DNA of 64,000 bases from Desulfuromonas sp. (GTDB taxonomy: Bacteria > Desulfobacterota > Desulfuromonadia > Desulfuromonadales > UBA2294). The stretch lies in contig PKTZ01000020.1 of the NCBI GenBank assembly GCA_002868925.1, positions 3,710 through 67,709 on the forward strand. Reading direction: 5' to 3'. Both the position numbers and the translations under genes were made by a program. A model generated the notes under the pieces. The model searched no databases, was not told where the DNA came from, and was given only the letters and a program-made list of their open reading frames with translations. Shown here piece after piece: positions 5,449-58,068 of this stretch (within the stretch, counting starts at the first letter, position 1; each line of letters starts with the position of its first letter).

Positions 5449-5499
5449 AAGCGGCCAAAACACCCACTGCAGGGGAATAAACTGGTCACCGACGGCGAG

Positions 5500-5832
5500 A
5501 TGCTCTACGAGGACTACTCGCACATCGAGCGGCTGTTCTTCAAGATGAAGAAGTACTCCCTGGCCAAAACAGTCAAGGGCGCCTACCACCAGAACCCGGC
5601 CTACACCCACTGGTACGGCAACGCCGAGATGAAGATGGACCTGGTCGATATCAAGGCCGAGGCGAGCCGGTTGAAAAAGATGGCCGCCCCGGTGAAGACG
5701 GCAACCACGAGCGATGACAGCAGTTTCGAAGCTAAGCTGAAACTGCTCAAGAAAAAGTTCGATCGCGGAGCATTGAACAAGGAAGAGTACGAACAGGAGA
5801 AGAGAGTGCTGATGCAGGGCTACCTCGAGTAG
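5500..5832 (+). CDS. Same-frame continuation of the HAO-like cytochrome (helical C-terminal region plus SHOCT-like tail)
   Basis: Same frame as 4549..5448, with only TAG 5446..5448 between them. Codons 5449..5499 are open (KRPKHPLQGNKLVTDGE). No Shine-Dalgarno before ATG 5500. Tail KLKLLKKKFDRGALNKEEYEQEKRVLMQGYL. Confidence 0.6.
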   Translation: MLYEDYSHIERLFFKMKKYSLAKTVKGAYHQNPAYTHWYGNAEMKMDLVDIKAEASRLKKMAAPVKTATTSDDSSFEAKLKLLKKKFDRGALNKEEYEQEKRVLMQGYLE

Positions 5833-5856
5833 TCCAGCCTGCGCTATAATCGAGTC

Positions 5857-6234
5857 ATGAAGATGGATGCGGCAAACAAGAGTGAACTGACCAAGAAAGA
5901 GCTGAAGGACCTGCGCGTGCTGGCCCAGTTTACTTCGGTCTATTGCAAAGCCCATCACGACACGGAGCGGTCGCCGCTCGCCGCCGACACTCAGGGAGTC
6001 GCCGAACTGAATGTAAGTAAATACCCGGTCTGCCCGGAGTGCAGCGATTTTCTCTACTACGCGATCAAGCGTCGCCTCTATTGCCCACTCGATCCGAAGC
6101 CGACCTGCAAGCACTGCCCGGTACATTGCTACAAGCCCGACTATCGTCAGAAGGTGAAGGAGATCATGCGCTTTTCCGGAAAATACCTGATGTTGCGCGG
6201 TCGCCTCGATCTGCTCTGGCACTACTTCTTCTAG
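5857..6234 (+). CDS. ygbA: YgbA-like 'nitrous oxide-stimulated promoter' family Cys-rich protein
   Basis: 125 aa. Motifs VYCKAHH, CPECSDFLYYAIKRRLYCPLDPKPTCKHCPVHCYKPDYRQKVKEIMRFSG match my recollection of the YgbA family. Confidence 0.7.
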   Translation: MKMDAANKSELTKKELKDLRVLAQFTSVYCKAHHDTERSPLAADTQGVAELNVSKYPVCPECSDFLYYAIKRRLYCPLDPKPTCKHCPVHCYKPDYRQKVKEIMRFSGKYLMLRGRLDLLWHYFF

Positions 6235-6476: not shown

Positions 6477-6535
6477 CTGCTTAACAATTGACGAATTGAT
6501 CAACCGAAAACGTTTTTTAGATAAAGGAGAAAGAC

Positions 6536-7330
6536 ATGATCCGCGACATCGTACTCATCGACGAAGAAAAATGTGACGGCTGCGGCCTCTGCGTACCGGC
6601 CTGCGCCGAAGGGGCGATCCAGATCGTCGACGGCAAGGCGAAACTGGCGGCTGATAACCTCTGCGACGGCCTCGGCGCCTGTCTCGGCCATTGTCCGCAG
6701 GACGCGATCAAGGTGGTCAAGCGCGAAGCGGATGAGTTCGACGAGGTGGCGGTCGAGCAGCATTTGAAGGAGACCGCACCGGAGAAACTGGAAGAGTTCC
6801 ATGCCGAGCACGGACACGCACCGACCGGTGGCGGCTGCCCTTCGGCCCAGGTTCAGAACTTCGCCAAGCAGGCCGCTCCCGTTGGCGGTGGTTGCCCGTC
6901 GGCGCGGATGATGAATTTCGACAGCAAGCCGCAAACGGATGCTGATGATCAGGCGGGTCAGCGCCCGTCCGAGCTGCGCCAGTGGCCGGTTCAGCTTCAC
7001 CTGGTACCGCCGACCGCACCGTTCTTCCAGAATGCCGATGTTGTGTTGGCGGCCGATTGCGCGGCGTTTGCCTACGGTGATTTCCATAAGGATATTATCA
7101 AGGACAAGGCGTTGGCGATCGCCTGCCCGAAGCTCGACGACACCACACCTTACATCGACAAACTGACGGCGATGATCACCCAGAGCAATATCAAGAGCCT
7201 GACCGTCGTGTTGATGGAAGTTCCCTGCTGTGGCGGCCTGCTGGCGATGGCGAAACAGGCGATCGCCAACAGCGGAAAGGATATCCCGCTGGAGACGATC
7301 GTCGTCGGTATCCAGGGTGATATCAAGTAG
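6536..7330 (+). CDS. 4Fe-4S ferredoxin-domain protein with Cys-rich C-terminal domain
   Basis: RBS AAAGGAGAAAG. N-terminal CDGCGLCVPACAEG and CDGLGACLGHCP cluster motifs. Duplicated GGGCPSA motif. C-terminal CPKLDD and EVPCCGG. Confidence 0.8.
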   Translation: MIRDIVLIDEEKCDGCGLCVPACAEGAIQIVDGKAKLAADNLCDGLGACLGHCPQDAIKVVKREADEFDEVAVEQHLKETAPEKLEEFHAEHGHAPTGGGCPSAQVQNFAKQAAPVGGGCPSARMMNFDSKPQTDADDQAGQRPSELRQWPVQLHLVPPTAPFFQNADVVLAADCAAFAYGDFHKDIIKDKALAIACPKLDDTTPYIDKLTAMITQSNIKSLTVVLMEVPCCGGLLAMAKQAIANSGKDIPLETIVVGIQGDIK

Positions 7331-7360
7331 TTCCGAGAAAGCTTGTTCATCGTTTATAAA

Positions 7361-7392
7361 GGGCCCGGAATATTCCGGGCCTTTTATTTTTT
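7361..7392 (+). terminator. Rho-independent terminator
   Basis: GGCCCGGAA-TA-TTCCGGGCC hairpin followed by TTTTATTTTTT. Confidence 0.8.
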
Positions 7393-7419
7393 GACAGCAC
7401 CGATACAGTTGCGTAAATT
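7391..7419 (+). promoter_or_regulatory. Sigma70-like promoter candidate (TTGACA-N17-TAAATT)
   Basis: -35 TTGACA at 7391..7396, 17-nt spacer, -10 TAAATT at 7414..7419, ~30 nt before the HD-protein start. Confidence 0.5.
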
Positions 7420-7448
7420 GAAGTAATTTCAATCCGATGGAGGCTGTC

Positions 7449-8012
7449 ATGTCATATGGAATCACCCGTGACGAGGCGCTCGCCCTGGTTGAGGAGCGGC
7501 TCGAATCCCCGAATCTGATCAAACATTGCCTGGCGACCGAGGCGGTGATGCGGGCCTTGGCACTTCGGTTCGATGAGGACCCGGAAAAGTGGGGTTTGGC
7601 CGGTCTGCTGCACGATCTTGACGCCGAAACCCAGCCCGACCTGGCAATCCATACTCAGGAGACCGAAGAGATCCTGCGCGAAAAAGGTGTTGATTCCGAG
7701 ATTATCGAGGCGATCGGCATGCACAACGAGCTGGCGCGCGACCGCAAACGCGCCTCGATTTTCGAGCACGCCCTGGCCGCCGGCGAGACCATCACCGGCC
7801 TGATCGTCGCCACCGCCCTGGTTTATCCCGAAAAGAAACTCGCCTCGGTCAAGCCGAAGTCGGTACGCAAGCGGATCAAGGAGAAGGTGTTCGCTGCCGG
7901 CGCCAACCGCGATATCATCCGCGAGTGTGAGCTGATCGATATTCCGCTCGACGAGTTCTGCAATCTCTGCCTTGAGGCGATGCAGACGGTTTCCGACGAT
8001 CTCGGCCTTTGA
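7449..8012 (+). CDS. HD-domain (HDIG-type) metal-dependent phosphohydrolase
   Basis: GGAGG 5 nt upstream of ATG 7449 (track start 7437 is less likely). Motifs HCLATEAVMRALA and LAGLLHDLD. Confidence 0.8.
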   Translation: MSYGITRDEALALVEERLESPNLIKHCLATEAVMRALALRFDEDPEKWGLAGLLHDLDAETQPDLAIHTQETEEILREKGVDSEIIEAIGMHNELARDRKRASIFEHALAAGETITGLIVATALVYPEKKLASVKPKSVRKRIKEKVFAAGANRDIIRECELIDIPLDEFCNLCLEAMQTVSDDLGL

Positions 8013-11021: not shown

Positions 11022-13022
11022 ATGGCGATGAAGCGTTCCAAATTTCTCATCATCCTGATGACATCGCTGGCGGTCTTCTTCATCGTTTTCCTCTATTACC
11101 AGCAGTCACGCCTGTTCGAAGGTTTTGAAGCCAAAACCTACGATTTCCGTTTCCATACCCTGCGTGGTCCGATCCCCGCATCTTCCGATATCGTTATCGT
11201 CGCCATCGACGAGAAGAGCGTCGATGAACTCGGCCGCTTCCCCTGGAGTCGTACCTATTTTGCCCAATTCGTCGACAAGGTGACCGCCGCCGGCGTGCGC
11301 GGCGTGATGCTCGACGCCTTCTTCCCGGAGACGGAGAGCGAGGTAGCGGACGCTGCCTTTGCCAGAGCGTTGCGGGAATCCGGCAAGGTCTCTCTGGCAG
11401 TCGCCTTCGAGTTCGCCGCCGACGGTTCGGTCAGCCAGGTGACGAGAAGTCTGCCGCAGCTGCAACAGGTCTCGCAGTACGAAGCGCACATCAACCTGAC
11501 CCCGGACGAGGACGGGGTCGTCCGCTGGACGCCGCTGCACCTGCAGGACGAGCAGGGGGGAGACGTCTACTCGCTCGCCGTGAACGGGGCGCGGGTGCTG
11601 CTCGGCGAAGAACAAGTCGAGCCGGGGGTCTATGACATATCGATCGGGTCGCGCACGATTCCGACCGATGGCGGCCACTTCGCCCTGATCAACTACGCTG
11701 GTCCGCCCGGCATCTACAAGCGGATCCCTTTCGTCGACGTGGTCAAGGATCGGGTCGACCCGGAGGAGCTGCGTGACAAGCTGGTGCTGGTCGGCTCGAC
11801 CGCGCTCGGTATTTACGATATGCGGGTCACCCCGTTCTCCAATAATTCACCCGGGGTCGAGGTCCACGCCAACATGATCGACAGCATCCTGCGCAACGAC
11901 TTTATCCAGCGTGGCGGTTTCGAATCGCTGCTCGATCTGATCGCCATAATCGCCCTCGGCATTCTGGCTGCCTTTATCACCCTCAGCCTGCGCCATTCGA
12001 TCTCGTTTCCGTTGGTCCTGCTACTTTTGCTCGGTCACGGTGTGTTCGCATACAGCATGTTCGTCAAAGGTCACTGGGTGAGCATGGTCTACCCGGAGAT
12101 GAGTATCCTGCTGGCCTACTGCCTGACCGCTTACCTCCGCTTCTTTTTTCTCGACCGCAAATCGCGGGAAATCCGCGATATCTTTTCCAGTTATGTTTCG
12201 GAAAAGCTGGTCGATCGGCTGGTGCAGGACCCTTCTCGGGCCCGGGTCGGTGGTGAAACCCGAGTCATCACGGTGCTGTTCTCCGACATTGCCAACTACA
12301 CCAGCTATAGTGAAAAACTGCCGGCCGAAGAGGTCGTACGCAACCTCAATCGCTATCTGGCTGCAATGACCGATGTCATCATGGAGCATGACGGCACCCT
12401 CGACAAGTTCATGGGAGACGGGATCATGGCTTTCTGGGGCGCGCCGATGCCGCAGGAGGATCATGCCCACCGGGCAATTGATTGTGCTCTGGGAATGATG
12501 CAGGCGCTGGAGGAGGTCAACCGGGCGATGGAGGCAGAAGGGGGCGAGTCGCTCTCGATGCGGATCGGAATCCATACCGGAGAGGCGGTCGTCGGCAATA
12601 TCGGTTCCGAGTCGAAAAAGATGGAGTACACCGCCATCGGTGACACGGTCAATGTCGCCTCCCGGATCGAACAGGCGAACAAACTCTACGGTACCACAGT
12701 GATGGTCAGCGAGAGTACAAGGCGCCATGTTGATGGAGCGTATGTTCTTCGCGAGATCGACAACGTGCGGATGAAGGGGAAGTCAGAACCGATGCTGATC
12801 CACGAGGTTCTACCGCAGGCAACGGAGCTGCTGCCGGAGTTCGAAAAAGCTGTTGACCTCTATCGAGACAGGGATTTTGAAGCCGCTTTGCAGATTTTTG
12901 TCGAATTGGGAGAGCGCTTCGCCGATCCGGTTTCGGCACGCTATGTTTCCAGTTGTCGCGACTATATAGAAAATCCCCCCGCTGACGACTGGGATGGTGC
13001 TCATTACTCTCTGCGCCGCTGA
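11022..13022 (+). CDS. CHASE2-sensor class III adenylate/guanylate cyclase
   Basis: N-terminal TM, CHASE2-like periplasmic region (IVIVAIDEKSVDELGRFPWSR), three TM helices, cyclase domain (VITVLFSDIANYTSYSE, KFMGDGIMAFWGAP, RIGIHTGEAVVGNIGS, YTAIGDTVNVASRIE). Confidence 0.9.
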   Translation: MAMKRSKFLIILMTSLAVFFIVFLYYQQSRLFEGFEAKTYDFRFHTLRGPIPASSDIVIVAIDEKSVDELGRFPWSRTYFAQFVDKVTAAGVRGVMLDAFFPETESEVADAAFARALRESGKVSLAVAFEFAADGSVSQVTRSLPQLQQVSQYEAHINLTPDEDGVVRWTPLHLQDEQGGDVYSLAVNGARVLLGEEQVEPGVYDISIGSRTIPTDGGHFALINYAGPPGIYKRIPFVDVVKDRVDPEELRDKLVLVGSTALGIYDMRVTPFSNNSPGVEVHANMIDSILRNDFIQRGGFESLLDLIAIIALGILAAFITLSLRHSISFPLVLLLLLGHGVFAYSMFVKGHWVSMVYPEMSILLAYCLTAYLRFFFLDRKSREIRDIFSSYVSEKLVDRLVQDPSRARVGGETRVITVLFSDIANYTSYSEKLPAEEVVRNLNRYLAAMTDVIMEHDGTLDKFMGDGIMAFWGAPMPQEDHAHRAIDCALGMMQALEEVNRAMEAEGGESLSMRIGIHTGEAVVGNIGSESKKMEYTAIGDTVNVASRIEQANKLYGTTVMVSESTRRHVDGAYVLREIDNVRMKGKSEPMLIHEVLPQATELLPEFEKAVDLYRDRDFEAALQIFVELGERFADPVSARYVSSCRDYIENPPADDWDGAHYSLRR

Positions 13023-13122
13023 ATGTTAAGACTGGCCGAAGGGTCCGTTTTTGTGCTATTTTATTTAAATTCGATTATCAATTATCTCCTCGTTTCCCCA
13101 AAAACCGGTTATAGGTGTGACA

Positions 13123-16100
13123 ATGAAGAAGATCACTTTATTCTCTCTTCTACTTACCGTCCTTTTCTGCGGCACTATCGCGTCGTCCGCCCGGGCCGCT
13201 TTCCAGCAGGTTGATTTTATTGCCAGCATCAAGGTTGAAAAGCCGCTATCACTGGCGGCTGGTCCCGATGGCACGATCTACATGACGACAACCGACGGCC
13301 GGGCTCTGGCTGTTTCAGCTGACGGTGAGATCCTTCGCGAGTACGGCCTGCTCGAAAAGGGTGAGAAGCCGATTCTCAAGAAGGCTGCCGGCATCGCTTA
13401 CGCTGACGGGATCGTCTACGTTACCGACAGCCGTCTTGATAAAGTGGTCCTCTTTTCGGTCGATGGCAAACTGCTCGATGCGTTCGGCAAAAGAGGCCGG
13501 GATGCCAAGGAGTTCGACGATCCCACCGCTATCACCGTGCGGGACAGCATTATCTACGTGGTTGATTCCGGTAACGATCGGGTGCAGCTGTTCGGTCGCA
13601 ATGGCGTTTATATCGGAGCGATCGGACAGGCGGTTGCTGAGACGGAACAGCTCAATGACCCGGTCGACTTGGCGGTCGATGAAGGGGGGCGTCTCTACGT
13701 CGTTGATCAATCCGATTCAAGGGTTAAAATTTACAACCAGGATGGATCCTATGCCGGCCAGTACAGCGAGCCAGAGAGACCGTCTTCGATAACCATCGCC
13801 CGAGACAGCGTCTTTGTCGCCGATGATTACCACCATACGGTGACCCGCATCTTTTTCGATAACCGTCCCGCCGAGAGCTTCGGCGTCAAGGGAGAGGCGC
13901 GGGCCCAGTTCAAGGGGATCAGCGGTCTTTTCGTCAACGGTCTCGGTCATCTCTTCGTGGCCGACCGGAAAAACGACAACATTCAATCCTTCGCGATGGA
14001 GGTCGAGGAGGGTTCTGGTTTGACCGAGCCGACGCCGATCCCGACCTGGGTCGAGTGGATGGAGACGGTCGAACTTAGCGCGAGCGGCCTGTTCTGGGAT
14101 GAAACCGGCAAACGTCTGCTGGTCGTCGATGATAAATCGAAGAGCCTGACCATTGTTGTCGATGGTCAGCCGGCAGGAGTGATTACCGTGCCGAACTGGA
14201 AGCCGCTCGCAGCTGCTGTCGACAGTGAAGGAGCGATCTGGACCGTCGATCGTGGTAAGAACAGACTGCTCAAGCTGGGCGCAGACGGCTCGATTCTGCT
14301 CGAAATCGGCAAATATGGGAGTCGCGAGGGTTACTTCTCCTCTCCGAGCGACCTCGCCATCACCCCAGACGGGTTGATTTACGTCGCCGATAAAGGGAAC
14401 CACCGGGTACAGGCCTTTAATTCCGACGGCGTCTTCCTTTCCGCTTTCGGTTCCGACGGCAGTCAGGCTCTGCTGAAGAGTCCATCGGCGCTGCAGATCG
14501 ATCCGGTGGGCAACCTGTTTGTCCTCGATGAGAGCAGCGACAAGGTCGTCATGTTCGCTCCGGACGGCGAGCCGATCCGGGAGATCGGCGGGGCTGAGGG
14601 TGAGCCCGGTTATCTCAAAGAACCGGTCGCGATAACCCTGGTAGCGGATGAGCTGATGGTCCTCGATGAGGGGCAGGATTGCATTAAGGTTTTTGATGTG
14701 GATGGTTCATTCCGCCGTGTTTTTGGCTCCGGCGGCGAAGGCCGCGGCGATTTTAGTAAACCGGTGGCCATGGCCCGGATCAGCGAGACCGAGTTGCTCG
14801 TTGCCGATGCCGAGAACGGCCTGGTACACAAATTTAAAACGCACAACACGCCGAAGCCGGTCGCCGATGTCGAAGTCAAAGCCGGGATGCGCAAGGTCAA
14901 GATCGAATGGTCTGCCAGCGGGGCGGCCGATGTCGAGGGGTATGCGATCTACCGCTCACAGGATGCGGCCGGACCTTACCAAATGGTGGCAACAACCAAC
15001 CTGAACAGCTATGCCGATGCCGACGTCGAGCCGGGAGAGACCTATTTCTACCGGGTTGGCGTGCAGACCCGAAACGGCCAGGAAAGCCCTCTTACCACAG
15101 CGCAAAGAGCCCGGCCCGAGAAGGGGCGGGCAGCCAAGATCGGAGAGGTCAGCGCCGATCCAATGGAATGGTCGGTAACCCTCTCCTGGCCACAGAAAAA
15201 GCAGCAACCTTTCCTCGATCATTATAATGTTTACCAGCAAGTGGTCGAAGGTGAGTTCGAGAAGATCGGTGATACGAAAGAGACTGATTTTGTCGCTGCC
15301 GGGCTCGACCCGTCGACCGATTATGTTTTCCGGGTAACGGCTGTCAGTATCGACGATGTCGAAACCACGCCGGTCGAGGTGTCGACGACGACCTTGGTGG
15401 CAACGCGGCCACCGATCGAAATCGTCGAATTCGGTATCGACGATATTTTCTCCAATACCTACAAGATCTACGAGGATGAGGGGATCGGTTTTATGCGGAT
15501 CGCCAACAATACCGGGGCCAAAATCTCGAGCCTGAAGGTGTCGTTTGCGATCAAGGAGTTCATGGACTACCCGTCCGAGGTCGAAATCAAGGATCTCGGC
15601 CCCCGCTCGACCAAGGATGTCGTGCTCAAGGCGGTATTCAACAACAAGATTCTCGATGTGACCGAGGATACGCCGGTCCAGACCTCTATCGGGCTCTCCT
15701 ATTATGAGAATGGCGAATTGCAGAGCTATTCGCGCAACCACGCGATCAATATCTTCGAGAAACACCGGATGATGTGGGACGTGCGGGAGCGGTTCGCGAC
15801 CTTCGTTACCCCGAAGGACGAGGTCGTGCTCGAATTCGTCCGTTCGGTCATTACCCAGTACCCCGAGGTCAACGACCCGATCCTGTTTGCGGCAGCTCTC
15901 TATGATGCCCTCGGCGTGGTCGGGCTCAAGTATATCCAGGACCCTTCCAATCCGTACCAGATGACCTCGGAGGATACCGACACCATTGATTACATCCAAT
16001 ATCCGCGCGAGACGCTGAATCGACGCTCAGGCGACTGTGATGACCTGGTGGCGCTCTTCGGTGCCATGCTCGAGAGCCTCGGCATCCGGACCAAGGTGAT

Positions 16101-16845
16101 CGAGGTGCCTGGGCATATGTTCATGATGTTCGCCACCGAGTTTACCCCGGAGGATCGTCCGGTTGCGGTTGCCGACCTGTTCATTGAACATGAGGACGTA
16201 CTCTGGGTACCGGTCGAAGTGACCCTGGTCGGTTCCTCATTTCTCAAGGCCTGGGAGAAGGGGAGTTCCAATCATGCCGAGTGGGTCGGGCGCAACCTCG
16301 ACCTGATGGATATCCGTACGGCATGGGAGACTTACAAGCCGGGAAGTTTGGTGAAGTCGGACTGGCGGCCGAAGGAAGTTCTGCGTAGCGATATTGAAAC
16401 GAGCTTTGACGAGTTCAAAATGCTGAAGAAGATCCGGATGAGCTGCATTACCAAGAATTATGTTGACCGGGCCCGGCGTGAACCGGACAATTTCGATCCG
16501 TACCTGCAACTCGGTATCATTTATGCTGAAGAGGGGGAGCCGGAGGAGGCGTTGAAGCTTTTCGAAAAGGCGCGCGAGCTGGATCCGGAAAACCCGGCAA
16601 TTTACAATAATCTTGGTAATATCTATTACCTACAAGATAAATATACGGAGGCGGTTGAAGCCTATGCTGCTGCCGTTGAAAATGATCCGGCTGATCCGTA
16701 TGTCCTGGTCAACCTGGCCCGGGCCAACCTGAAGAACGATCAACGGGAGCAGGCTTCGCAGAATTTCTCGCGGGCGATCGAGCTGTCTCCGGAGATTGCG
16801 GCCAAGTACCGGAGCATGGCCCTTGAATTGATGAGTCCACTCTAA
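13123..16845 (+). CDS. Large secreted multidomain protein: ~2 NHL-repeat propellers, 2 FN3 domains, transglutaminase-like cysteine-protease core, C-terminal TPR
   Basis: Signal peptide MKKITLFSLLLTVLFCGTIASSARA (ATG 13123; track start GTG 13117). Repeated NHL motifs (YVVDSGNDRVQLF, YVADKGNHRVQAF). FN3 (VKIEWSASGAADVEGYAIYRS). TGase core (RRSGDCDDLVALFGAMLESLG..VPGHMFMMF). TPR (IYNNLGNIYYLQDKYTEAVEAY). Confidence 0.85.
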   Translation: MKKITLFSLLLTVLFCGTIASSARAAFQQVDFIASIKVEKPLSLAAGPDGTIYMTTTDGRALAVSADGEILREYGLLEKGEKPILKKAAGIAYADGIVYVTDSRLDKVVLFSVDGKLLDAFGKRGRDAKEFDDPTAITVRDSIIYVVDSGNDRVQLFGRNGVYIGAIGQAVAETEQLNDPVDLAVDEGGRLYVVDQSDSRVKIYNQDGSYAGQYSEPERPSSITIARDSVFVADDYHHTVTRIFFDNRPAESFGVKGEARAQFKGISGLFVNGLGHLFVADRKNDNIQSFAMEVEEGSGLTEPTPIPTWVEWMETVELSASGLFWDETGKRLLVVDDKSKSLTIVVDGQPAGVITVPNWKPLAAAVDSEGAIWTVDRGKNRLLKLGADGSILLEIGKYGSREGYFSSPSDLAITPDGLIYVADKGNHRVQAFNSDGVFLSAFGSDGSQALLKSPSALQIDPVGNLFVLDESSDKVVMFAPDGEPIREIGGAEGEPGYLKEPVAITLVADELMVLDEGQDCIKVFDVDGSFRRVFGSGGEGRGDFSKPVAMARISETELLVADAENGLVHKFKTHNTPKPVADVEVKAGMRKVKIEWSASGAADVEGYAIYRSQDAAGPYQMVATTNLNSYADADVEPGETYFYRVGVQTRNGQESPLTTAQRARPEKGRAAKIGEVSADPMEWSVTLSWPQKKQQPFLDHYNVYQQVVEGEFEKIGDTKETDFVAAGLDPSTDYVFRVTAVSIDDVETTPVEVSTTTLVATRPPIEIVEFGIDDIFSNTYKIYEDEGIGFMRIANNTGAKISSLKVSFAIKEFMDYPSEVEIKDLGPRSTKDVVLKAVFNNKILDVTEDTPVQTSIGLSYYENGELQSYSRNHAINIFEKHRMMWDVRERFATFVTPKDEVVLEFVRSVITQYPEVNDPILFAAALYDALGVVGLKYIQDPSNPYQMTSEDTDTIDYIQYPRETLNRRSGDCDDLVALFGAMLESLGIRTKVIEVPGHMFMMFATEFTPEDRPVAVADLFIEHEDVLWVPVEVTLVGSSFLKAWEKGSSNHAEWVGRNLDLMDIRTAWETYKPGSLVKSDWRPKEVLRSDIETSFDEFKMLKKIRMSCITKNYVDRARREPDNFDPYLQLGIIYAEEGEPEEALKLFEKARELDPENPAIYNNLGNIYYLQDKYTEAVEAYAAAVENDPADPYVLVNLARANLKNDQREQASQNFSRAIELSPEIAAKYRSMALELMSPL

Positions 16846-23304: not shown

Positions 23305-23904
23305 ATGCTTGAACTATTTGAGAAGGGTGGGGTCCTGATGTACCCCATCCTGTTTTGCTCCATTCTCGCCCTTGCGATCTTTCTAGAACGGATCTGGTTC
23401 TACTCCCGCTTTATAAAGGGGCACGACGAGTTGATCTCAGAGGTCGACCCGTTAATCGCCGAAGAGAAGTTCGATCAGGCTTCTGTTGCCTGTCAACGCT
23501 TCGGTAATCCACTCTCCCGTATTTATGCCACCGCTATCCGCCTGGCCGGCCGTTCCCGGGCCCAGATCAAGGCGGTGGTCGAGGAGGCCGGTTCGCGTGA
23601 AGTCGCTCCGCTGGAGCGTTACCTCGGTCTCCTCGGGACCATAGCCACCATTACACCGCTGCTCGGACTGCTTGGTACCGTTCTCGGCATGATCCGCGCG
23701 TTTACCATCATCTCGGCCGAAGGGGTCGGCACGCCGGCAACCCTCGGGGGCGGCATTTCCGAGGCGTTGATCACCACCGCCGCCGGCCTGACGGTCGCGA
23801 TCCCGACCATCCTGCTGCATAAATATCTGACCGGCCGGGTCGATCGGATGGCTCTCGATCTTGAAGTGAAATCGTTGCGGGTCGTCGATCGATTGGGGAA
23901 GTAG
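23305..23904 (+). CDS. exbB: MotA/TolQ/ExbB proton-channel protein
   Basis: 199 aa, three TM helices, signature LGLLGTVLGMIRAF and EALITTAAGLTVAIP. Confidence 0.9.
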   Translation: MLELFEKGGVLMYPILFCSILALAIFLERIWFYSRFIKGHDELISEVDPLIAEEKFDQASVACQRFGNPLSRIYATAIRLAGRSRAQIKAVVEEAGSREVAPLERYLGLLGTIATITPLLGLLGTVLGMIRAFTIISAEGVGTPATLGGGISEALITTAAGLTVAIPTILLHKYLTGRVDRMALDLEVKSLRVVDRLGK

Positions 23905-23907
23905 GGG

Positions 23908-24327
23908 ATGTTCCGACGTAAGAAAAGAGAGGAACTCCGGGTCGAACTGACGCCGATGATTGACGTCGTTTTCCTGCTGCTGATCTTTTTCATGATCTCG
24001 ACGACTTTTATCGAAACGCCCGGCCTCTCGATCAAGTTGCCGGAGTCGAGCACCAGTATCGCCGACCGGGAGCCGGATGAGGTCAAGATCTACTTGTCGA
24101 AGGAAGGAGAGATCTTCCTGCAGGAAGAAAAGATCAACATCGCCGCACTGCGGGCCCATCTGAAAACATTTGGCGAGCGCAGCCGGAGCATGACCTTCTT
24201 GCTGCTTGCCGACGAGGAGGCCCGTCATGGTCAGGTCGTTCAGCTGATGGATACGGCCAAGGAGAGTGGCTTCGGCAAGTTGGCGATCGCAACCGAAGCG
24301 AAGCCGGGAGGGGTGAAGCAAAATTAG
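23908..24327 (+). CDS. exbD: ExbD/TolR biopolymer transport protein
   Basis: ELTPMIDVVFLLLIFFMISTTF with the conserved TM Asp, and a periplasmic domain. Confidence 0.9.
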   Translation: MFRRKKREELRVELTPMIDVVFLLLIFFMISTTFIETPGLSIKLPESSTSIADREPDEVKIYLSKEGEIFLQEEKINIAALRAHLKTFGERSRSMTFLLLADEEARHGQVVQLMDTAKESGFGKLAIATEAKPGGVKQN

Positions 24328-24372
24328 TATATCCGTGTCCGACTGAGTTGTAATACATCTTTGGAGGAGATA

Positions 24373-25464
24373 ATGAGTAAAACCATAGCGATATTGACCG
24401 GCGGCGGTGACTGCCCGGGGTTGAACGCCGTGATCCGAGGGGTAGTGCGGGCGGCAAGTCGTCGTGATTGGCGGGTGCTCGGTATTCGTGACGGTTTCGA
24501 TGGTCTGGTCGGTGAGCCGCGTTGGATCGAACTCGACAAGAAGGCGGTAAGTGGCATCCTGCAGAGGGGAGGAACCATCCTCGGCACCTCGAACCGGGGG
24601 AACCCATTCTCCTACCCGGTCGAACAGGATGGTAAGACGGAACTGCGAGATGTTTCGCAGACGGTGGTCGATAATTTCCGGAAAATCGGGGCCGATGCCC
24701 TGATTGCGGTCGGCGGCGACGGGACCCTCAAGATCGCCCGCCAACTCGGGCGGCTTGGTATCCCGGTGGTCGGTGTGCCGAAGACCATCGACAACGACCT
24801 GAAGGGGACCGATGTTACCTTCGGTTACAATACCGCGGTCGGGATCGTGACTGAGGCGCTCGACCGGCTACATTCGACCGCCGAAAGCCATCACCGGGTG
24901 ATGGTGGTCGAGGTCATGGGACGCGACGCCGGCTGGATCGCTCTCGAATCGGGTATCGCCGGCTCGGCCGATGTCATCCTGATCCCGGAAATTCCCTATC
25001 GGATCGACAAGGTATGTGCGGCTATTCGCCGCCGGAGCGAGTCGGGACATCTCTTTTCGATCGTCGTCGTTGCCGAAGGCGCGACCTCGGCCAGCGGTGA
25101 CAAGGTCGTCCAGCTCACGGCCGACCAAAACCTCGGGGTCGAGCGGCTCGGAGGAGTCGGCCATCAAGTCGCACGTGAGATCGAAACCTGCCTCGATCTC
25201 GATATGGAGCTTAGGACCGTCGTTCTCGGGCATGTGCAACGCGGTGGAACACCGTCTCCCTTTGATCGCATCCTGAGCAGCCGTTTCGGTGTCAAGGCGG
25301 TTCAGTTGATCGAACAGGGCGGCTTCGGCAAGATGGTTGCACTGCACGGGCGAAAGATCGCTTTTGTCGATATCAATGACGCGGTCGGTCAGCTTAACCT
25401 GATCGACCCGGAAGGGGAATTGGTCGAGGCGGCGGAGGAGCTCGGAATCATGGTCGGCCGTTGA
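24373..25464 (+). CDS. pfkA: 6-phosphofructokinase
   Basis: GGAGGAG before ATG 24373 (the track start 24361 is TTG). IAILTGGGDCPGLNAVIRG, GGDGT, PKTIDNDL, MGRDAGWIA. Confidence 0.9.
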   Translation: MSKTIAILTGGGDCPGLNAVIRGVVRAASRRDWRVLGIRDGFDGLVGEPRWIELDKKAVSGILQRGGTILGTSNRGNPFSYPVEQDGKTELRDVSQTVVDNFRKIGADALIAVGGDGTLKIARQLGRLGIPVVGVPKTIDNDLKGTDVTFGYNTAVGIVTEALDRLHSTAESHHRVMVVEVMGRDAGWIALESGIAGSADVILIPEIPYRIDKVCAAIRRRSESGHLFSIVVVAEGATSASGDKVVQLTADQNLGVERLGGVGHQVAREIETCLDLDMELRTVVLGHVQRGGTPSPFDRILSSRFGVKAVQLIEQGGFGKMVALHGRKIAFVDINDAVGQLNLIDPEGELVEAAEELGIMVGR

Positions 25465-27640: not shown

Positions 27641-28090
27641 TTAGTTGGGATCAGATTTATTAGATTTAAGGTAAATAGAGTTAAGCTGTCGATCATCCGG
27701 CCGTTTTATATTTTTCAGCCATGCCTCCAAAAACTCGATCTCCATCGGTTTCTGCACGACCGTGACACCGATTTCCTTCGCTTTATCCATATCGATACTT
27801 GTGGTGTCGCCGGATATCAACAACACGTTTGAAAATGGTCTTTTGCAGCCTTTCGTTTTCAAATCTGCCAGGAACTCCAGCCCCTTCATTCCAGGCAGAT
27901 GGTGGTCAATGATCAGTACATCGGCACATGGAGCGTTTCGGGTGCAAGAATAACCCTTCCAGACATCGCAGCTGAAAGGGACCTCGCCAAAAATTACTTC
28001 ATTGCCGAGATCTTCAAAAAACCAAGTATGTGATTCACGAACTGACTTCTCATCTTCGACGATCATGATTTTCAGTTTTTTGGAAGACAT
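27641..28090 (-). CDS. Single-domain response regulator with Cys-rich insert replacing helix alpha-2
   Basis: KIMIVEDEKS, acceptor Asp in ADVLIIDHHLPGMKG, LISGD, QKP. Insert FSCDVWKGYSCTRNAPCAD plus KGC. Confidence 0.85.
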   Translation of the reverse strand: MSSKKLKIMIVEDEKSVRESHTWFFEDLGNEVIFGEVPFSCDVWKGYSCTRNAPCADVLIIDHHLPGMKGLEFLADLKTKGCKRPFSNVLLISGDTTSIDMDKAKEIGVTVVQKPMEIEFLEAWLKNIKRPDDRQLNSIYLKSNKSDPN

Positions 28091-28093
28091 AAC

Positions 28094-29389
28094 TTAATCG
28101 TTTTCCTGTGAAGTGGCATCGGCTGATATTGCCGGGATGAGTATGTTTATCTTTGTGTACGCACCCTCTTTACTGTCAATATCGATAGAGCCATCGTGCC
28201 TCTTGACGATATCGTTAACAATCGACAGACCAAGGCCTGTCCCTTCTGCCGGGGGCTTGGTTGTGAAAAAAGCTTCCAGAGCTTTTTTTGCAATCTCTTC
28301 GGTCATGCCAACACCGTTGTCGTAAACTTCCAGCAACAGGAACGGGTGCTCATGTTCTTTATGGAGGCTGGCGCCGATGCTAATTTTCTTTTCCGATAGA
28401 CCCGCTTTGTCTTTCAATGCATCATTCGAATTATCAATGAGATTGATGACGATTTGTTGGATGCTTTGCGGTTGCACCAGCAGTGGTGGTATATCGTCCT
28501 TAATATCAACGGTAAGAGTAATATCCTGGTTTTTTACCTTGGTTGCAATGAGGGAAAGAGCTCCTTTAATGGTCTTTTGAATATCAACCAGTTTCTTTTC
28601 AATGCGGGTATCCTTGGAATAGAACAGCAAATCCTGGGTTATCTCGGCGATATTTTTACTCTCATCTTTGATGCGTCTTGCAATTTCCAGGTTTCGATCA
28701 GACCGTTCAGGCGATCGTTCCAATAGCGTTGCATAGTTCATAATCCCCTGAATGGGGTTGTTGATTTCGTGAGCGACTCCGGCTGCCACTGTACCGAGTG
28801 CAGCCAGTTGCGCAGAGCGGGATCGTTCCTCCTCAAGTTGTTTGCGTTCAGTAATGTCGCGAACGAAACTGATGATACCCAATTTGTCCCCTTCAGCAGT
28901 CTGGAGTAAACTGACCGTATGCTCAGTGGGGAAAATCTCTCCTGATTTGCGCTTTGCCTTAAACTCGAAACGGGCCACTCGTCCCTTCTGAAAAGCATCC
29001 TGAATGCGGCTTCCGAACTCCAGATAATGATCGTGGTTGACATGAAGAATTTCTGTCGAGTTGGCTGAAACTTCCTCTTCCGTGTAGCCGAAGATTTTCG
29101 TTGCAGCCGGATTGATAAAAAGTAATCTTCGATCAGTAGAGACAACCAGGACCGCCTCGTCCAGGCAGTTAAACACTCTATCGAGCAATAGCTCAGGGCT
29201 TTGCAGGAACTTATTTGTTTCAGGATTGTCTTTAGAGAAAGGCAACTTCTTCCCCTCGGCTCTTAGCTGTTTTGTTGCGGCAGTCAAGAGACTAAATTTT
29301 AAAAACAAACTTGATTGCCGGGTAACCTCATGAGGATGATGCAAAATTGCACGGGAAAACGGGCAGTTTCGCTGTATTTTGAATGCCAA
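28094..29389 (-). CDS. PAS-domain sensor histidine kinase (cytoplasmic)
   Basis: PAS (VLVVSTDRRLLFINPAATKIFGYTEEEV), H-box VAHEINNPI, HATPase (VYDNGVGM, GTGLGLSIV). Ends 3 nt before the receiver gene. Confidence 0.9.
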   Translation of the reverse strand: MAFKIQRNCPFSRAILHHPHEVTRQSSLFLKFSLLTAATKQLRAEGKKLPFSKDNPETNKFLQSPELLLDRVFNCLDEAVLVVSTDRRLLFINPAATKIFGYTEEEVSANSTEILHVNHDHYLEFGSRIQDAFQKGRVARFEFKAKRKSGEIFPTEHTVSLLQTAEGDKLGIISFVRDITERKQLEEERSRSAQLAALGTVAAGVAHEINNPIQGIMNYATLLERSPERSDRNLEIARRIKDESKNIAEITQDLLFYSKDTRIEKKLVDIQKTIKGALSLIATKVKNQDITLTVDIKDDIPPLLVQPQSIQQIVINLIDNSNDALKDKAGLSEKKISIGASLHKEHEHPFLLLEVYDNGVGMTEEIAKKALEAFFTTKPPAEGTGLGLSIVNDIVKRHDGSIDIDSKEGAYTKINILIPAISADATSQEND

Positions 29390-29600
29390 TATACAGTAGC
29401 TAGGATTTCAGGTCAAAAACATATAGAAGATATAAACTCTTACGTCTTTACCATTCGTGCAACGTTATATAGTTTCTACTAGATGTTTTGGTTTTTTGGG
29501 TGGCACGAACCAGGGACGACGGCATATCGTTTCCCTGATGGTATAATCTGAATTAGTAACTAATGTATACGAATAGAGGTAACCGATGACGGGAGTCGTT

Positions 29601-29996
29601 ATGAAATTACAGAGTTATTTCGAAACAACCGACGGTTTTGGTGTTTTATCGACAGCAGATGGTAAAGGTAATGTCGATGCAGCTGTTTATGCTAAACCGC
29701 ATGTTATCGACGATGGCCGAATCGCATTCATCATGCGGGAACGGTTGACCCATCACAACATACAGCAGAACGACAGCGCTTGTTACCTGTTCAGGGAAGA
29801 GGGAGGCGGCTACCGGGGAGTTCGTCTTTATCTGACACGGGTCGGGGAAGATCAGGACCCTGAATTGATCGAAAAGATGACCCGGGCTTGGCTCAGCCCA
29901 GAGGTGGACTCGGCCAAGGGGCAAAAGTTTATCGTTTACTTTCGCCTTGAAAAGATCCTCAGTCTGATCGGTGATGGTACCCCTGACATCTCTTGA
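29601..29996 (+). CDS. Pyridoxamine 5'-phosphate oxidase-family (split-barrel flavin-binding) protein
   Basis: MKLQSYFETTDGFGVLSTADGKGNVDAAVYAKP...RIAFIMRERLTHHNI. The track ORF starts at 29586; ATG 29601 is preferred. Confidence 0.75.
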   Translation: MKLQSYFETTDGFGVLSTADGKGNVDAAVYAKPHVIDDGRIAFIMRERLTHHNIQQNDSACYLFREEGGGYRGVRLYLTRVGEDQDPELIEKMTRAWLSPEVDSAKGQKFIVYFRLEKILSLIGDGTPDIS

Positions 29997-30013
29997 TGAG
30001 AAAGGAGAAGATT

Positions 30014-30493
30014 ATGAAACGTTTGATCCGAGCCGGAGCTGTGGTTGCAGCGACCCTGCTGGCAACGAATGCCGGAGCATTGGAAGTCGGCGCCCGGGCG
30101 CCAGACTTTTCAGCCGAATCGACTCACGGAAAGGTTGTTCTCAGCGACCTGCTGAAAAACGGCCCGGTTATTCTGGCTTACTATTACGCCGATTTCACCT
30201 CGGGCTGAACCAGCGAAATGAAGGCTTTTCAAGACGACATCGAGCGTTTTGAGAAGCTCAACGCCCAGGTCCTGGGCGTGAGTAAAGATGACCTTAAGAC
30301 ACATCGCGATTTTTCCGAGGAATTGGGTTTGACCTTTCCGCTGGTTGTAGATGATGGTCGTATCAGCGAACACTACGGACGTGGTCGGATCACCCATTTA
30401 ATTGGTCAGGATGGGATCGTTCGATATGTTTATAGCGGGATGCCGGACAACGAGGTATTGCTAGATGAGATTATGAAACTACAGTCTTATTGA
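30014..30493 (+). CDS. Periplasmic AhpC/TSA (Bcp-like) peroxiredoxin with in-frame TGA (30206..30208) read as selenocysteine
   Basis: RBS AAGGAGAAG before ATG 30014. Signal peptide MKRLIRAGAVVAATLLATNAGA. Track ORFs 29993..30208 and 30218..30493 share one frame. The joined sequence FTSG-U-TSE puts the TGA at the T-x-x-C peroxidatic site. Conserved Arg in RGRITHLIGQDG. Confidence 0.8.
30215..30235 (+). other. Candidate SECIS-like hairpin just downstream of the TGA
   Basis: TGAA(30219..30222)/TTCA(30228..30231) stem with GGCTT loop, starting 11 nt after the TGA. The GC pairs 30214/30236 and 30215/30235 are possible. Weak by eye; needs a folding program. Confidence 0.3.
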
Positions 30494-30573
30494 TGACGCG
30501 TCTATTGATTTTATTGATGTGAAAAGAGCGGCCTGCCTGGAGCCGCTCTTTCAGCTTTTCAATAATATATATT

Positions 30574-30981
30574 TTATTCCATTCGTTTTTCGCACTGCGC
30601 GATCCAGGCCATGAATTCGCTGATGCGGAAAGGTTTTTTGAAAAACTTGCAGCCGAGAGATTCGATCTTCGCCAGGGCTTCCTTCGACAAGGTCGCACCG
30701 GTAATAATGGCCTTGTTGACATCCTGGGCCTTGCAGCCGCGTTCTCTTTGCATTACCAGGAAATCGATGCCGCTGATGTTGGGCATCATGTTGTCGGTAA
30801 TGACGATGTCGGCACACGGTTTTTCCTTTGGGCACCCTTTGTCGTGCCCTTCGAAAACCGGGCAGACTGTCGGGTTGTCGAACATCTGGACCGAATGGCC
30901 CCTCTGCTCCAATGTGACCTGCAACAGCAGGGAAATGGTCGGGTCGTCTTCGAAGAGAAGAATTTTAAGTGGTTTGCTCAA
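30574..30981 (-). CDS. Single-domain response regulator with Cys-rich insert (paralog of 27641..28090)
   Basis: Probable TTG start 30981 (GGAG 8 nt upstream, 20 nt after the kinase stop). The track ORF extends to 31101 inside the kinase gene. KILLFEDDPT, acceptor Asp in ADIVITDNMMP, ITGA, KKP. Insert VCPVFEGHDKGCPKEKPCAD plus RGC. Confidence 0.8.
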   Translation of the reverse strand: MSKPLKILLFEDDPTISLLLQVTLEQRGHSVQMFDNPTVCPVFEGHDKGCPKEKPCADIVITDNMMPNISGIDFLVMQRERGCKAQDVNKAIITGATLSKEALAKIESLGCKFFKKPFRISEFMAWIAQCEKRME

Positions 30982-31000
30982 TTGGAGACTCCGGAACGAT

Positions 31001-32896
31001 TCAATTTGCCGTCGGTAGGAAAAAAGTGAAGGTCGAGCCCACACCTTTGGCACTTTCAACCTGGATATGGCCGTGATGGGCTTCGATGATCTGTTTGGCA
31101 ATACTCATCCCGAGCCCCAAGCCGGATATTGCAGTTTCACTGGTGTCGGCCCGGTAGAACTTGTCAAAAACACGCCGGGCTTCCTCCTCGGTCATGCCAA
31201 TTCCGGTGTCACAAATGCTTACTGCAACTTCGTTGTTTATTGCTTCAGCCTTGATCGTAATGGCCGATCCTTCGTTTGAGTATTTAACGGCGTTGCTGAG
31301 AAGGTTCTCCAGAACCTGAAGAATCCTGTGACGGTCGATCGCTAGCGGGATTGATTTGGTTGCTTCGGAGATCTCCAATTCGAACTCGCGATTGGTAAAC
31401 TGGTCGGAAAAAGAGTCGACGGAGACCGAAATGACGTCCTGGATGTGTACGTTTTCAAAATGCATCCTCAGCGGCTGACCACGTTCAATACGGCTGATAT
31501 CGAGCAGGTCGTCGATCATTTTTTTAAGTGATTCGCTTCGGTCAAAAATCTTCTTGATGAAGGTCGTTCTCTGCTCATCCGAAAAATCCCGACCGGTTTT
31601 CGGGTCACTCAGGATCTCGGCAAAACCCATAATCGCCGTCAACGGGGTGCGCAGTTCGTGGGCGGCGGTCGATATGAATTCACTTTTGATCTGGTCGGTT
31701 TCGATCAGGGCGCGCTCGGCCATTTTTTCGTCTGTAATGTCACGCACGATAATCAGAATATACGGTTCGTCGTTTAGGTGAAAAACCTTGGCCGAGAGCT
31801 TACAGGGCCTAACCTTATCCCCTTGGGTTCGGAAATTGACTTCCTGGTTGATGATAGCCCCGTTACGGATCAGCTCTTCGCGAAACGCCTGGCGGTTGCC
31901 TTCGTCTTCCCATAGGTTCAGGTCGGCTGAATTGTGCCCGATCGCCTCAATCCGTTTAATTCCGGTCTCAAACTCAAAGGCGGGATTAACGTCGACGATT
32001 GCTCCGTCGCTGAGCTTCGCAATGACTACCGGGTCCGGAATCGTAACGAAGGCAGAACGGAACCGCTCTTCGCTCTCCTTGAGGGCCTGCTCCGTATTTT
32101 TTTGCCGGGTTATATCAAGGAAGATACAGGCGAACTGTCCGGGGCGAGGGGAGTAAGCCTTGACTTCGAAGTGTCGGTCGATCTCACCCGAGTAGTGGTC
32201 GAAGTGGACCGTTTTGCCGTTCAGGGCGACATCGCCGTAGGTTTTGATCCAATGCGACTCCGTGCCGGGCATGACTTCCAGCACGGTTTTACCGATGACG
32301 TCAACGGCTTTCAATCCGGTGATTTTTTCAAAGGCCGGATTGACGTTGAGGAAACGGTAATCGATGGGTGTTCCTGCTTCGTCGCAGATGATCTCGTGTA
32401 GGGCAAAGGCATCGATCATTTCGCTGAAAACATGCCGGAAGTCGGTCTCGAGCTGTCGCTGACGGGTGACGTCGCGGTCGATGCCACGGTAGCCTTTGAA
32501 ATTTCCGTCTTCGTCGAAAATCGGAGTTCCGCTCGACTCGATGATCACCTCGTGGCCATCTTTGTGGAGGTTGATGTTTTCCAGGCAGCTGAATGGTTGG
32601 TATCTTTTTGCGATCGGATCAAAATACTTGTGGACCCGTTCCGCTTCCTCCGACGCCATCAGGTCAAAGGCATTCAACCCGATAATCTCTTCCGGTTCGT
32701 AGCCGAGCAGATCCTTTATGCGCGGACTGGCATAGGTGAAATCGGCATTCTCGTCAAATTCCCAGAACCAGTCCTGAGAGTTTTCGACCATATTTTTGAA
32801 TCTATCTGAATCAGGAGACATTATATCCTCATTCAAAAAAGACAGTGATGTGAAATCACGATAATTGTTATTTTGAAATACTTCTTCGGTCTTCAT
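31001..32896 (-). CDS. Multi-PAS (three PAS/PAC) sensor histidine kinase
   Basis: 631 aa. Three PAS modules (FWEFDENADFTYASPRIKDLLGYEPEEI; EIICDEAGTPIDYRFLNVNPAFEKITG; VVIAKLSDGAIVDVNPAFEFETG). H-box AAHELRTPL. HATPase (ICDTGIGM, GLGLGMSIA). Confidence 0.9.
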   Translation of the reverse strand: MKTEEVFQNNNYRDFTSLSFLNEDIMSPDSDRFKNMVENSQDWFWEFDENADFTYASPRIKDLLGYEPEEIIGLNAFDLMASEEAERVHKYFDPIAKRYQPFSCLENINLHKDGHEVIIESSGTPIFDEDGNFKGYRGIDRDVTRQRQLETDFRHVFSEMIDAFALHEIICDEAGTPIDYRFLNVNPAFEKITGLKAVDVIGKTVLEVMPGTESHWIKTYGDVALNGKTVHFDHYSGEIDRHFEVKAYSPRPGQFACIFLDITRQKNTEQALKESEERFRSAFVTIPDPVVIAKLSDGAIVDVNPAFEFETGIKRIEAIGHNSADLNLWEDEGNRQAFREELIRNGAIINQEVNFRTQGDKVRPCKLSAKVFHLNDEPYILIIVRDITDEKMAERALIETDQIKSEFISTAAHELRTPLTAIMGFAEILSDPKTGRDFSDEQRTTFIKKIFDRSESLKKMIDDLLDISRIERGQPLRMHFENVHIQDVISVSVDSFSDQFTNREFELEISEATKSIPLAIDRHRILQVLENLLSNAVKYSNEGSAITIKAEAINNEVAVSICDTGIGMTEEEARRVFDKFYRADTSETAISGLGLGMSIAKQIIEAHHGHIQVESAKGVGSTFTFFLPTAN

Positions 32897-58060: not shown

Positions 58061-58068
58061 TTTCTTCC

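Follow-up and report, generated by a model that had tools for sequence, protein, structure and literature searches.

Peroxiredoxins that carry selenocysteine (Sec, U in one-letter code) in a TxxU active site (TxxU Sec-Prx, COG1225/PF00578) are an established and abundant family of prokaryotic selenoproteins, recorded in the lineage of surveys that goes back to Kryukov and Gladyshev (PMC1088965, PMC1794560, PMC13188914). The Sargasso Sea data set alone contained 43 such genes (PMC1088965), a 2006 genome survey counted 12 and listed a "peroxiredoxin" among the selenoproteins of Geobacter metallireducens (PMC1794560), and a 2026 review lists Sec-Prx as experimentally supported (PMC13188914). Here, we describe a gene at positions 30014-30493 of a 64-kb stretch of the Desulfuromonas contig PKTZ01000020.1 (the whole stretch is hereafter called the window), which is a new, unannotated member of this family, known since 2001-2005, and which very probably constitutes one continuous gene for a Sec-containing peroxiredoxin of the BCP/PrxQ type. 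With the TxxU family, whose reference example is WP_011365628.1, it shares the AhpC/TSA fold, Sec at the peroxidatic site, widespread Cys homologs, a recoding signal within the coding sequence, and occurrence in anaerobic Deltaproteobacteria, Geobacter included. Unlike the family at large, the clade of the window protein is predicted to be exported, has a mature protein free of Cys, and mostly carries Tyr or Phe in place of the Pro of the active-site motif.

Other described systems are related to this gene in part. The BCP/PrxQ proteins (5ENU, 3DRN, 2YWN; E. coli Bcp) are the closest in sequence and agree with it in size, active-site context and catalytic Arg, but the window protein has Sec in place of Cys and no resolving Cys, and hence lacks the atypical 2-Cys mechanism of most BCPs; the reference BCP/PrxQ proteins are cytoplasmic, whereas the window protein has a predicted signal peptide. 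PrxU of Eubacterium acidaminophilum (NCBIfam NF040737) is an experimentally shown peroxiredoxin with Sec at the peroxidatic position, and proves that the Sec-for-Cys substitution is functional in bacteria. The possibility that our gene is a PrxU ortholog was rejected, as its product scores 41.6 bits against an NF040737 cut-off of 270, and PrxU is a 233-position protein of the AhpC/Prx1 type. The selenoproteins known as Prx-like thiol:disulfide oxidoreductases (UxxC/UxxU) also have a thioredoxin fold and are common in Geobacter and other Deltaproteobacteria; the window protein, which reads U-T-S-E, is without their defining motif.

The features of the coding region are the following, where L numbers denote homologous genome loci.

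30002..30007 (+): AAGGAG, a Shine-Dalgarno-like sequence read directly, 6 nucleotides (nt) ahead of the ATG at 30014.

30014..30493 (+): complete coding sequence of the putative Sec-peroxiredoxin, by translation; 159 amino acids (aa) counting U, stop codon TGA at 30491-30493.

30014..30079 (+): predicted secretory (Sec-type) signal peptide MKRLIRAGAVVAATLLATNAGA, 22 residues, cleavage expected before LEVG.

30197..30199 (+): codon of the catalytic Thr of the T-x-x-U motif, T in all 24 orthologs except L004, which has S.

30206..30208 (+): in-frame TGA, putatively read as Sec and encoding the peroxidatic residue, assigned from TGA conservation in the orthologs and alignment to the Cys of 5ENU.

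30386..30388 (+): codon of the conserved catalytic Arg (GRGR-ITHLI), assigned from our alignment A1 and matching the R of RITFVID in 3DRN.

The earlier note on this DNA had joined two open reading frames (ORFs), 29993..30208 and 30218..30493, both on the plus strand, as lying in the same frame and parted only by a TGA, and the ORF list and translation bear this out: the frame is common to both, and the TGA at 30206-30208 is the sole stop in between. Between it and the ATG at 30218 stand the three sense codons ACC, AGC and GAA (T-S-E), and the read-through translation, ...GPVILAYYYADFTSG-[TGA]-TSEMKAFQDDIERFEKLNAQVLGVS..., matches that given in the note. The likely start is the ATG at 30014, where 22 of the 24 orthologs in the alignment also have their start Met (L018 and L020 start one residue further upstream), and in 17 of the 24 the dipeptide KE, translated just ahead of the start Met, reflects the same purine-rich AAGGAG-like stretch. 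Because AAGGAG precedes this ATG and the start Met of the orthologs aligns there, a TTG start at 29993 is unlikely. Counted from the ATG at 30014, 17 nt separate the gene from the stop codon of the upstream gene (29994-29996), and with this start the spacing originally proposed holds. ORF geometry alone is not significant, because the window contains 95 in-frame TGAs that are flanked on both sides by 50 or more open codons; only the one at 30206 has protein-like flanks, and the case rests on homology.

That homology runs across the TGA. The read-through product matches the Pfam family AhpC-TSA (PF00578) over profile positions 1-124 of 124 with 97.5 bits against a cut-off of 26 (E 6.8e-28), while its halves taken alone reach E 9.7e-5 (N-terminal piece, below the gathering score) and 1e-13 (the other half), so that neither is a complete fold, in agreement with the proposal that neither half would work as a thioredoxin fold. 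No equivalog cut-off was reached in a search of the read-through product against NCBIfam. The closest solved structures are BCP/PrxQ peroxiredoxins and not members of the Prx1, Prx6, Tpx, Prx5 or AhpE groups, with 5ENU (E 1e-18) and 3DRN (4e-17) followed by 2YWN, 3HJP and 2CX3. The similarity to BCP/PrxQ proteins such as 5ENU, 3DRN and 2YWN spans E 1e-18 to 1e-15, and fragments of the family are named "peroxiredoxin Q/BCP" by JGI. In 5ENU (DNTPGCTTE), the residue opposite the TGA is the peroxidatic Cys, whose context D-x-T-x-G-C-T-x-E becomes D-F-T-S-G-U-T-S-E in the window protein. The TGA had indeed been assigned to the peroxidatic-Cys position beforehand, and that assignment is upheld by the BCP structures, by the Cys homolog P0114 and by 13 loci with TGC or TGT; likewise, family-like sequence was said to continue past the TGA and to include a conserved Arg, and this residue (R57 in alignment A1) is invariant across 32 C-terminal halves. 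The entire 159-aa product contains no Cys at all, the mature part of the orthologs is likewise free of Cys, and no resolving Cys is found at CP+5 (CP, peroxidatic Cys) or anywhere else in the window product (U-T-S-E-M-K). Since there is no Cys in the product, the protein, judged from its sequence, must belong with the BCPs of the 1-Cys type (here 1-Sec) and must depend on an external reductant.

Conservation of the TGA itself is complete among close relatives. It is found at this codon in 24 of the 24 close orthologs with upstream sequence on genome contigs, mostly from Desulfuromonadales and including Geomobilimonas luticola and isolate IMCC39146, whose C-terminal halves are 49-74% identical and whose N-terminal halves, which end exactly at the TGA, are 42-73% identical. 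TGA likewise stands there in another 41, more distant BCP-type homologs (Anaerolineae, Bacillota, Myxococcales, Burkholderiales, Acidobacteriota and others). In total, TGA occurs in 65 related loci (66 Sec forms with the window) and TGC or TGT in 13 homologs; the 80 genome loci were chosen by peptide patterns that include NAQVLG, and the sampling thus covers Sec-BCP genes with that peptide. In the alignment, P0114 pairs its Cys with the TGA codon, and TGA against TGC/TGT at a single site is the classic Sec/Cys pattern. The comparison with Cys homologs proposed in the earlier note thereby yielded both the Sec/Cys pairing and conservation of both flanks in the 24 orthologs. The Met four codons past the TGA is Leu in six orthologs (L001, L003, L021 and L023-L025), and no Shine-Dalgarno sequence precedes the ATG at 30218; because this restart Met is unconserved and lacks such a sequence, a separate downstream gene is unlikely.

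The databases present a different picture of this family. A search of 5.8 billion proteins returned more than 100 clusters that are C-terminal fragments of 88-91 aa, labeled "hypothetical" or "peroxiredoxin Q/BCP" (P0001-P0120), and therefore gene callers stop at the same TGA in every relative. The lone "full-length" match, P0001 (JGI), has W at the Sec codon and also runs past its true stop; because this real stop codon is read through as well, the entry appears to be a translation-table artefact, in which the contig was translated with a table where TGA encodes Trp.

The RNA downstream of the TGA folds into two hairpins that lie within the coding sequence.

30223..30258 (+): hairpin 1, from the predicted fold; 14-bp stem and 8-nt loop, ACAUCGAG, starting 14 nt past the UGA.

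30261..30279 (+): hairpin 2, from the predicted fold; ACGCCCAG-GUC-CUGGGCGU, loop G69-U70-C71, with a core at 30263-30277 that encodes AQVLG.

A hairpin at about this place had been suggested as a check on Sec decoding, and one is present there, conserved, accompanied by some compensatory changes, and absent from Cys forms. Over the 60 nt past the codon, mean folding free energy (dG) and z-score are -19.7 and -2.4 in the TGA forms (n=65), against -10.2 and 0.0 in the Cys forms (n=13; Sec versus Cys, Mann-Whitney p ~1e-7). The contrast is well seen in a related pair sharing the sequence FTGG-U/C-TSEMTAFR..., where the Sec form L044 has dG -32.0 and z -2.7 and the Cys form L045, which has lost both hairpins present in L044, has dG -15.4 and z +1.35; this pair is a convenient natural control for studies of Sec insertion sequence (SECIS) elements. 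Hairpin 1 (dG -17.6, z -5.4) is paired in 89% of the cells of a 25-sequence alignment, against at most 60% when the partner strand is slid, with double changes at five pairs, and L018 and L022 keep the helix through a register shift. The same space is occupied in the other Sec subfamilies by a hairpin that differs in sequence and register, with a stem of about 14 pairs and median spacers of 13 nt on the 5' side and 4 nt on the 3' side, and Cys forms are without one.

Hairpin 2, which goes beyond what the earlier note had described, is conserved to the level of its bases. Its core, GCCCAGGUCCUGGGC (30263-30277), widens to 8 bp at 30261-30279 (dG -14.0, z -4.75) and follows a near-invariant consensus, GCCCAG-GUN-CUGGGC, in which the third loop base varies freely (C, U or G). 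It lies 54 nt past the active-site codon in 65 of the 66 Sec forms and 51 nt past it in L053, and all six core pairs are intact in 64 of 66 Sec forms, the exceptions being L043 and L054, versus 2 of 13 Cys forms with the same peptide. With these two Sec forms excepted, synonymous sites in the stem carry pairing-compatible bases only: the Ala codon is GCC or GCU (or Val GUC, with the wobble pair kept) and never GCG or GCA, Leu is CUG or UUG, and Gly is GGC or GGU; L020 shows a CAA/UUG double change. Conservation of the NAQVLG peptide in Sec-BCPs may therefore be largely an RNA footprint. Both hairpins occur across sequence-defined subfamilies from Desulfuromonadales, Anaerolineae, Bacillota, Myxococcales, Burkholderiales, Acidobacteriota and Planctomycetota.

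The apex of hairpin 2, CAG-GUC, equals the CAGGUC loop of the SECIS element of E. coli fdhF (NC_000913.3, ...GGUUGCAGGUCUGCACC...), such that G69-U70 correspond to G23-U24 of the latter, and both elements have a GC-rich stem and a small loop. In fdhF, a 17-nt SelB-binding upper hairpin sits 11 nt past the UGA and G23/U24 are essential; G23, together with the bulged U17, is a SelB contact whose mutation abolishes UGA read-through, and U24 is among the few invariant positions (PMC8659212). Differences from fdhF are nevertheless evident, as hairpin 2 begins 52-54 nt past the UGA instead of 11, has no bulged U, and in the window a second, long hairpin sits at the canonical SECIS position.

Several observations weigh against reading this locus as the gene of an exported, Sec-containing peroxidase. 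The Pro of the PxxxTxxC motif is Tyr in the window protein (Y-A-D-F-T-S-G-U); of the close orthologs, L001 and L003 alone retain it, the rest having Y, F or I. This loss is a departure from the peroxiredoxin consensus that is not known to exclude a protein from the family. A search with ARAGORN yielded no tRNA-Sec, either in the 64-kb window or in the 24 orthologous loci, Pfam found no SelA, SelB or SelD among ~40 long ORFs of the window, absences that over 64 kb say little, and there is no selA, selB or selD in the 24 orthologous loci; SelD and several selenoproteins are reported in Geobacter and Desulfuromonas species, where the Sec trait is present (PMC1794560). No SECIS or other relevant Rfam family was matched, either across the whole window at gathering thresholds or within 29900-30600 at E up to 10. 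Neither hairpin complies in full with the bacterial SECIS (bSECIS) model, which calls for a loop of 3-9 nt, a stem of 4-16 bp, a G in the first two loop positions, a loop 16-37 nt from the UGA, and a dG of -7.5 or lower (PMC13188914): the loop of hairpin 1 starts with A-C and so is without the loop G, its 14-bp stem, 8-nt loop, 28-nt spacing and dG of -17.6 being otherwise suitable, and hairpin 2, with an otherwise suitable 6-8-bp stem, GUC loop, and dG of -8.8 to -14.0, has its loop 60 nt past the UGA, beyond the 16-37 nt range. Finally, the signal peptide was assigned by eye and hydropathy only.

Each hairpin thus agrees with three of four bSECIS constraints, and the pair between them covers all four. 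Once hairpin 1 is folded, approximately 14 + 2 + 8 = 24 nt lead from the UGA to the hairpin-2 loop. We tentatively put forward, at somewhat less than even confidence, a composite or "bridged" SECIS in which both hairpins are needed, hairpin 2 binds SelB and a variable hairpin of 12-18 bp fills the gap and brings the effective distance to ~24 nt. Taking hairpin 1 alone as a canonical bSECIS element was rejected, as this violates the loop-G rule and leaves the Sec-specific conservation of hairpin 2 unexplained. A scan of metagenome contigs for the 15-mer of hairpin 2 returned mostly unrelated matches, as such a short motif would lead one to expect (108 of the first 120 were in unrelated contexts, and the 15-mer was thus rejected as a stand-alone marker), and also five more Sec-peroxiredoxins at the 54-nt spacing. 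The identical 15-mer is further carried by a Sec-containing metagenomic SelD gene (L175; TIGR00476, 359 bits; encoded on the minus strand, with the ORF at 13456-14679 and the TGA at 14457-14455 in plus-strand numbering, and with Sec at the site known to hold Cys or Sec), where it lies 27 nt past the UGA. There, a small first hairpin precedes it, and its loop is 33 nt from the UGA, within the canonical 16-37 nt.

Among the alternatives to a Sec-containing peroxidase, the one that survives best, and that we still consider improbable, is that the gene does encode a selenoprotein, which however works as a periplasmic thiol:disulfide oxidoreductase of the TlpA/ResA/DsbE-like or "Prx-like" kind. The predicted exported location, the lost motif Pro, a weak full-length NCBIfam similarity to ResA and DsbE, and PDB matches to ResA would all suit such an enzyme, but those families are defined by CxxC or UxxC (PMC1088965, PMC13188914), while the sequence here is T-S-G-U-T-S-E in a protein with no Cys. 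The peroxiredoxin Thr and Arg are moreover conserved, peroxiredoxins lead the Pfam and PDB matches by many orders of magnitude, and scores against the ResA and DsbE models all remain far under their cut-offs.

It is less probable still that the TGA is read through as something other than Sec, be it Trp, Cys or Gly inserted by a suppressor or near-cognate tRNA, or the product of a reassigned code, even though a public translation (P0001) shows W at the codon and no tRNA-Sec is seen in the 64-kb window. TGA is in fact the commonest ordinary stop in the window, where it closes 30 of 55 long ORFs, this gene and the one upstream of it among them, and the genetic code is thus standard; P0001 passes a real stop too, as expected of an artefact. 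The site is also the redox-active Cys of the family, with the classic Sec/Cys pair, and only where the codon is TGA is it followed by a conserved structure that has a SECIS-like G-U loop. Least credible of all is that the TGA is a true stop, leaving a pseudogene or two small genes (one for an exported peptide of 64 aa, the other for a protein of 91 aa that restarts at the ATG at 30218), for although only the 88-91-aa C-terminal half is annotated in over 100 clusters, an ATG lies four codons past the TGA and no Sec machinery is seen in the 64-kb window, a pseudogene would not persist with its TGA and both flanks conserved in 24 species (C-terminal halves 49-74% identical), the restart Met is replaced by Leu in the six orthologs listed above and lacks a Shine-Dalgarno sequence, neither half makes up a whole thioredoxin fold, and hairpins specific to TGA forms would have no role. 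Sec insertion at the TGA at 30206-30208, which the earlier note had favored, is instead backed by the Sec/Cys pairing, by conservation on both sides, by the downstream hairpin and by the use of TGA as the main stop elsewhere, and is the decoding that we infer.

The product of the gene is predicted to be exported to the periplasm. A signal peptide had been proposed for it, and its layout, as seen by eye and by hydropathy, consists of a basic n-region, a hydrophobic core (12-residue hydropathy maximum of 1.93) and an A-x-A c-region; the same layout is common to all 24 orthologs, whereas cytoplasmic relatives, including those from Anaerolineae and Bacillota, begin directly at the mature domain with its xVGxxAPDF motif. 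A second Sec-BCP subfamily with predicted export, marked by the motif F-T-K-T-U, was found in Burkholderiales/Betaproteobacteria and Planctomycetota (L041, L042, L047, L057, L061, L068, L072 and L076). A signal peptide is seen in six of these eight loci, which are those with a delimitable N-terminus, and seven of the eight are Cys-free, L057 having one Cys. Given the signal peptides of this subfamily, exported Sec-BCPs would not be confined to the Desulfuromonadales clade.

In the mechanism that we propose, UGA 30206-30208 would be recoded by SelB and Sec-tRNA(Sec), directed by mRNA structure within the coding sequence, namely hairpin 1 (30223-30258) and, 2 nt further on, hairpin 2 (30261-30279), a G-U-containing triloop on a GC stem that resembles the SelB-binding apex of known bacterial SECIS elements. 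The 22-residue signal peptide would then direct export by way of the Sec translocon into the periplasm, where the mature protein of ~137 aa, equipped with the Thr-x-x-Sec and Arg of a peroxiredoxin active site and no Cys, would act as a peroxidase. Its predicted activity would follow a 1-Sec cycle, in which attack of the selenolate on a peroxide yields a selenenic acid, an external thiol partner resolves the latter, and the enzyme is regenerated. The PprX system of Caulobacter reportedly offers a precedent for a periplasmic thioredoxin-like reductant fed by a relay of the CcdA/DsbD type.

As for the surroundings of the gene, two features adjoin it directly.

29586..29996 (+): gene of a 136-aa split-barrel protein of the pyridoxamine 5'-phosphate oxidase (PNPOx) family, assigned through homologs; upstream and co-oriented.

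30523..30551 (+): GC-rich hairpin that resembles a terminator, with CAGCUUUU after it, lying where the peroxiredoxin and response-regulator genes converge; a weak assignment.

The 136-aa protein has no Pfam or NCBIfam match of its own (its Pfam score is below reporting), and the PNPOx label that it had been given holds through homologs of 60-68% identity from Desulfuromonas, Geoalkalibacter and Malonomonas that carry PF01243 and are named pyridoxamine 5'-phosphate oxidase family. The two genes probably form one transcription unit, with the PNPOx gene first. At the other end, the 30494-30565 region folds with dG -24.5 and z -3.1, and a scan for the terminator consensus made no call there. Synteny is not conserved, in that no neighbor is common to the orthologous loci and the upstream PNPOx adjacency is limited to the window. 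In L004 (4658-5107), L005 (6331-6855), L006, L010 and L024, the Sec-Prx gene is directly followed by another, different gene of the PNPOx family; PNPOx genes of two unrelated subfamilies hence adjoin Sec-Prx in 6 of 25 loci, upstream in the window and downstream in five, and this recurrence might point to a shared redox function. In the window, the gene is flanked by genes for PAS histidine kinases and response regulators (27641-29389 and 30574-32896), which lie on the opposite strand. In L001 (6343-8114) and L003 (6342-8113), an OmpR-type response regulator and a histidine kinase follow Sec-Prx on the same strand. Such two-component neighbors may be due to chance in kinase-rich genomes.

The wider window holds the housekeeping genes mutS, glnD, nusA, truB and pnp and a multiheme cytochrome gene, which, together with the mostly Desulfuromonadales origin of the closest homologs, suggests a Desulfuromonadales chromosome. 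Elsewhere in it, a 1242-aa ORF (13117-16845, +) with NHL/beta-propeller repeats, fn3, and C-terminal TPR repeats adjoins a CHASE2 adenylate/guanylate cyclase gene (11022-13022). Long ORFs without a Pfam match at E 1e-5 were seen at 3419-4552 (+), 5233-6222 (-), 6500-7522 (-), 23452-24744 (-) and 57979-58980 (-), some of which overlap annotated-looking genes on the opposite strand and may be their non-coding shadows.

Sec-peroxiredoxins being an already established family, the overall picture of these selenoproteins is unchanged by our findings. What is less ordinary about the gene is that it belongs to an exported, Cys-free and mostly Pro-less variant, that this variant is systematically mis-annotated, and that it carries a conserved two-hairpin signal. 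If this signal were shown to work as proposed, it would be a new variant of the bacterial SECIS, might account for the failure of some genuine selenoprotein genes under the bSECIS model, and would provide an extra rule for finding them. With the annotation of C-terminal fragments only, an exported selenium-dependent peroxidase would have been missed in Desulfuromonadales and other lineages, and selenoproteome counts would be distorted as a result. An exported, Cys-free clade with no internal resolving residue also raises the question of what reduces a periplasmic selenenic acid in metal-reducing anaerobes.

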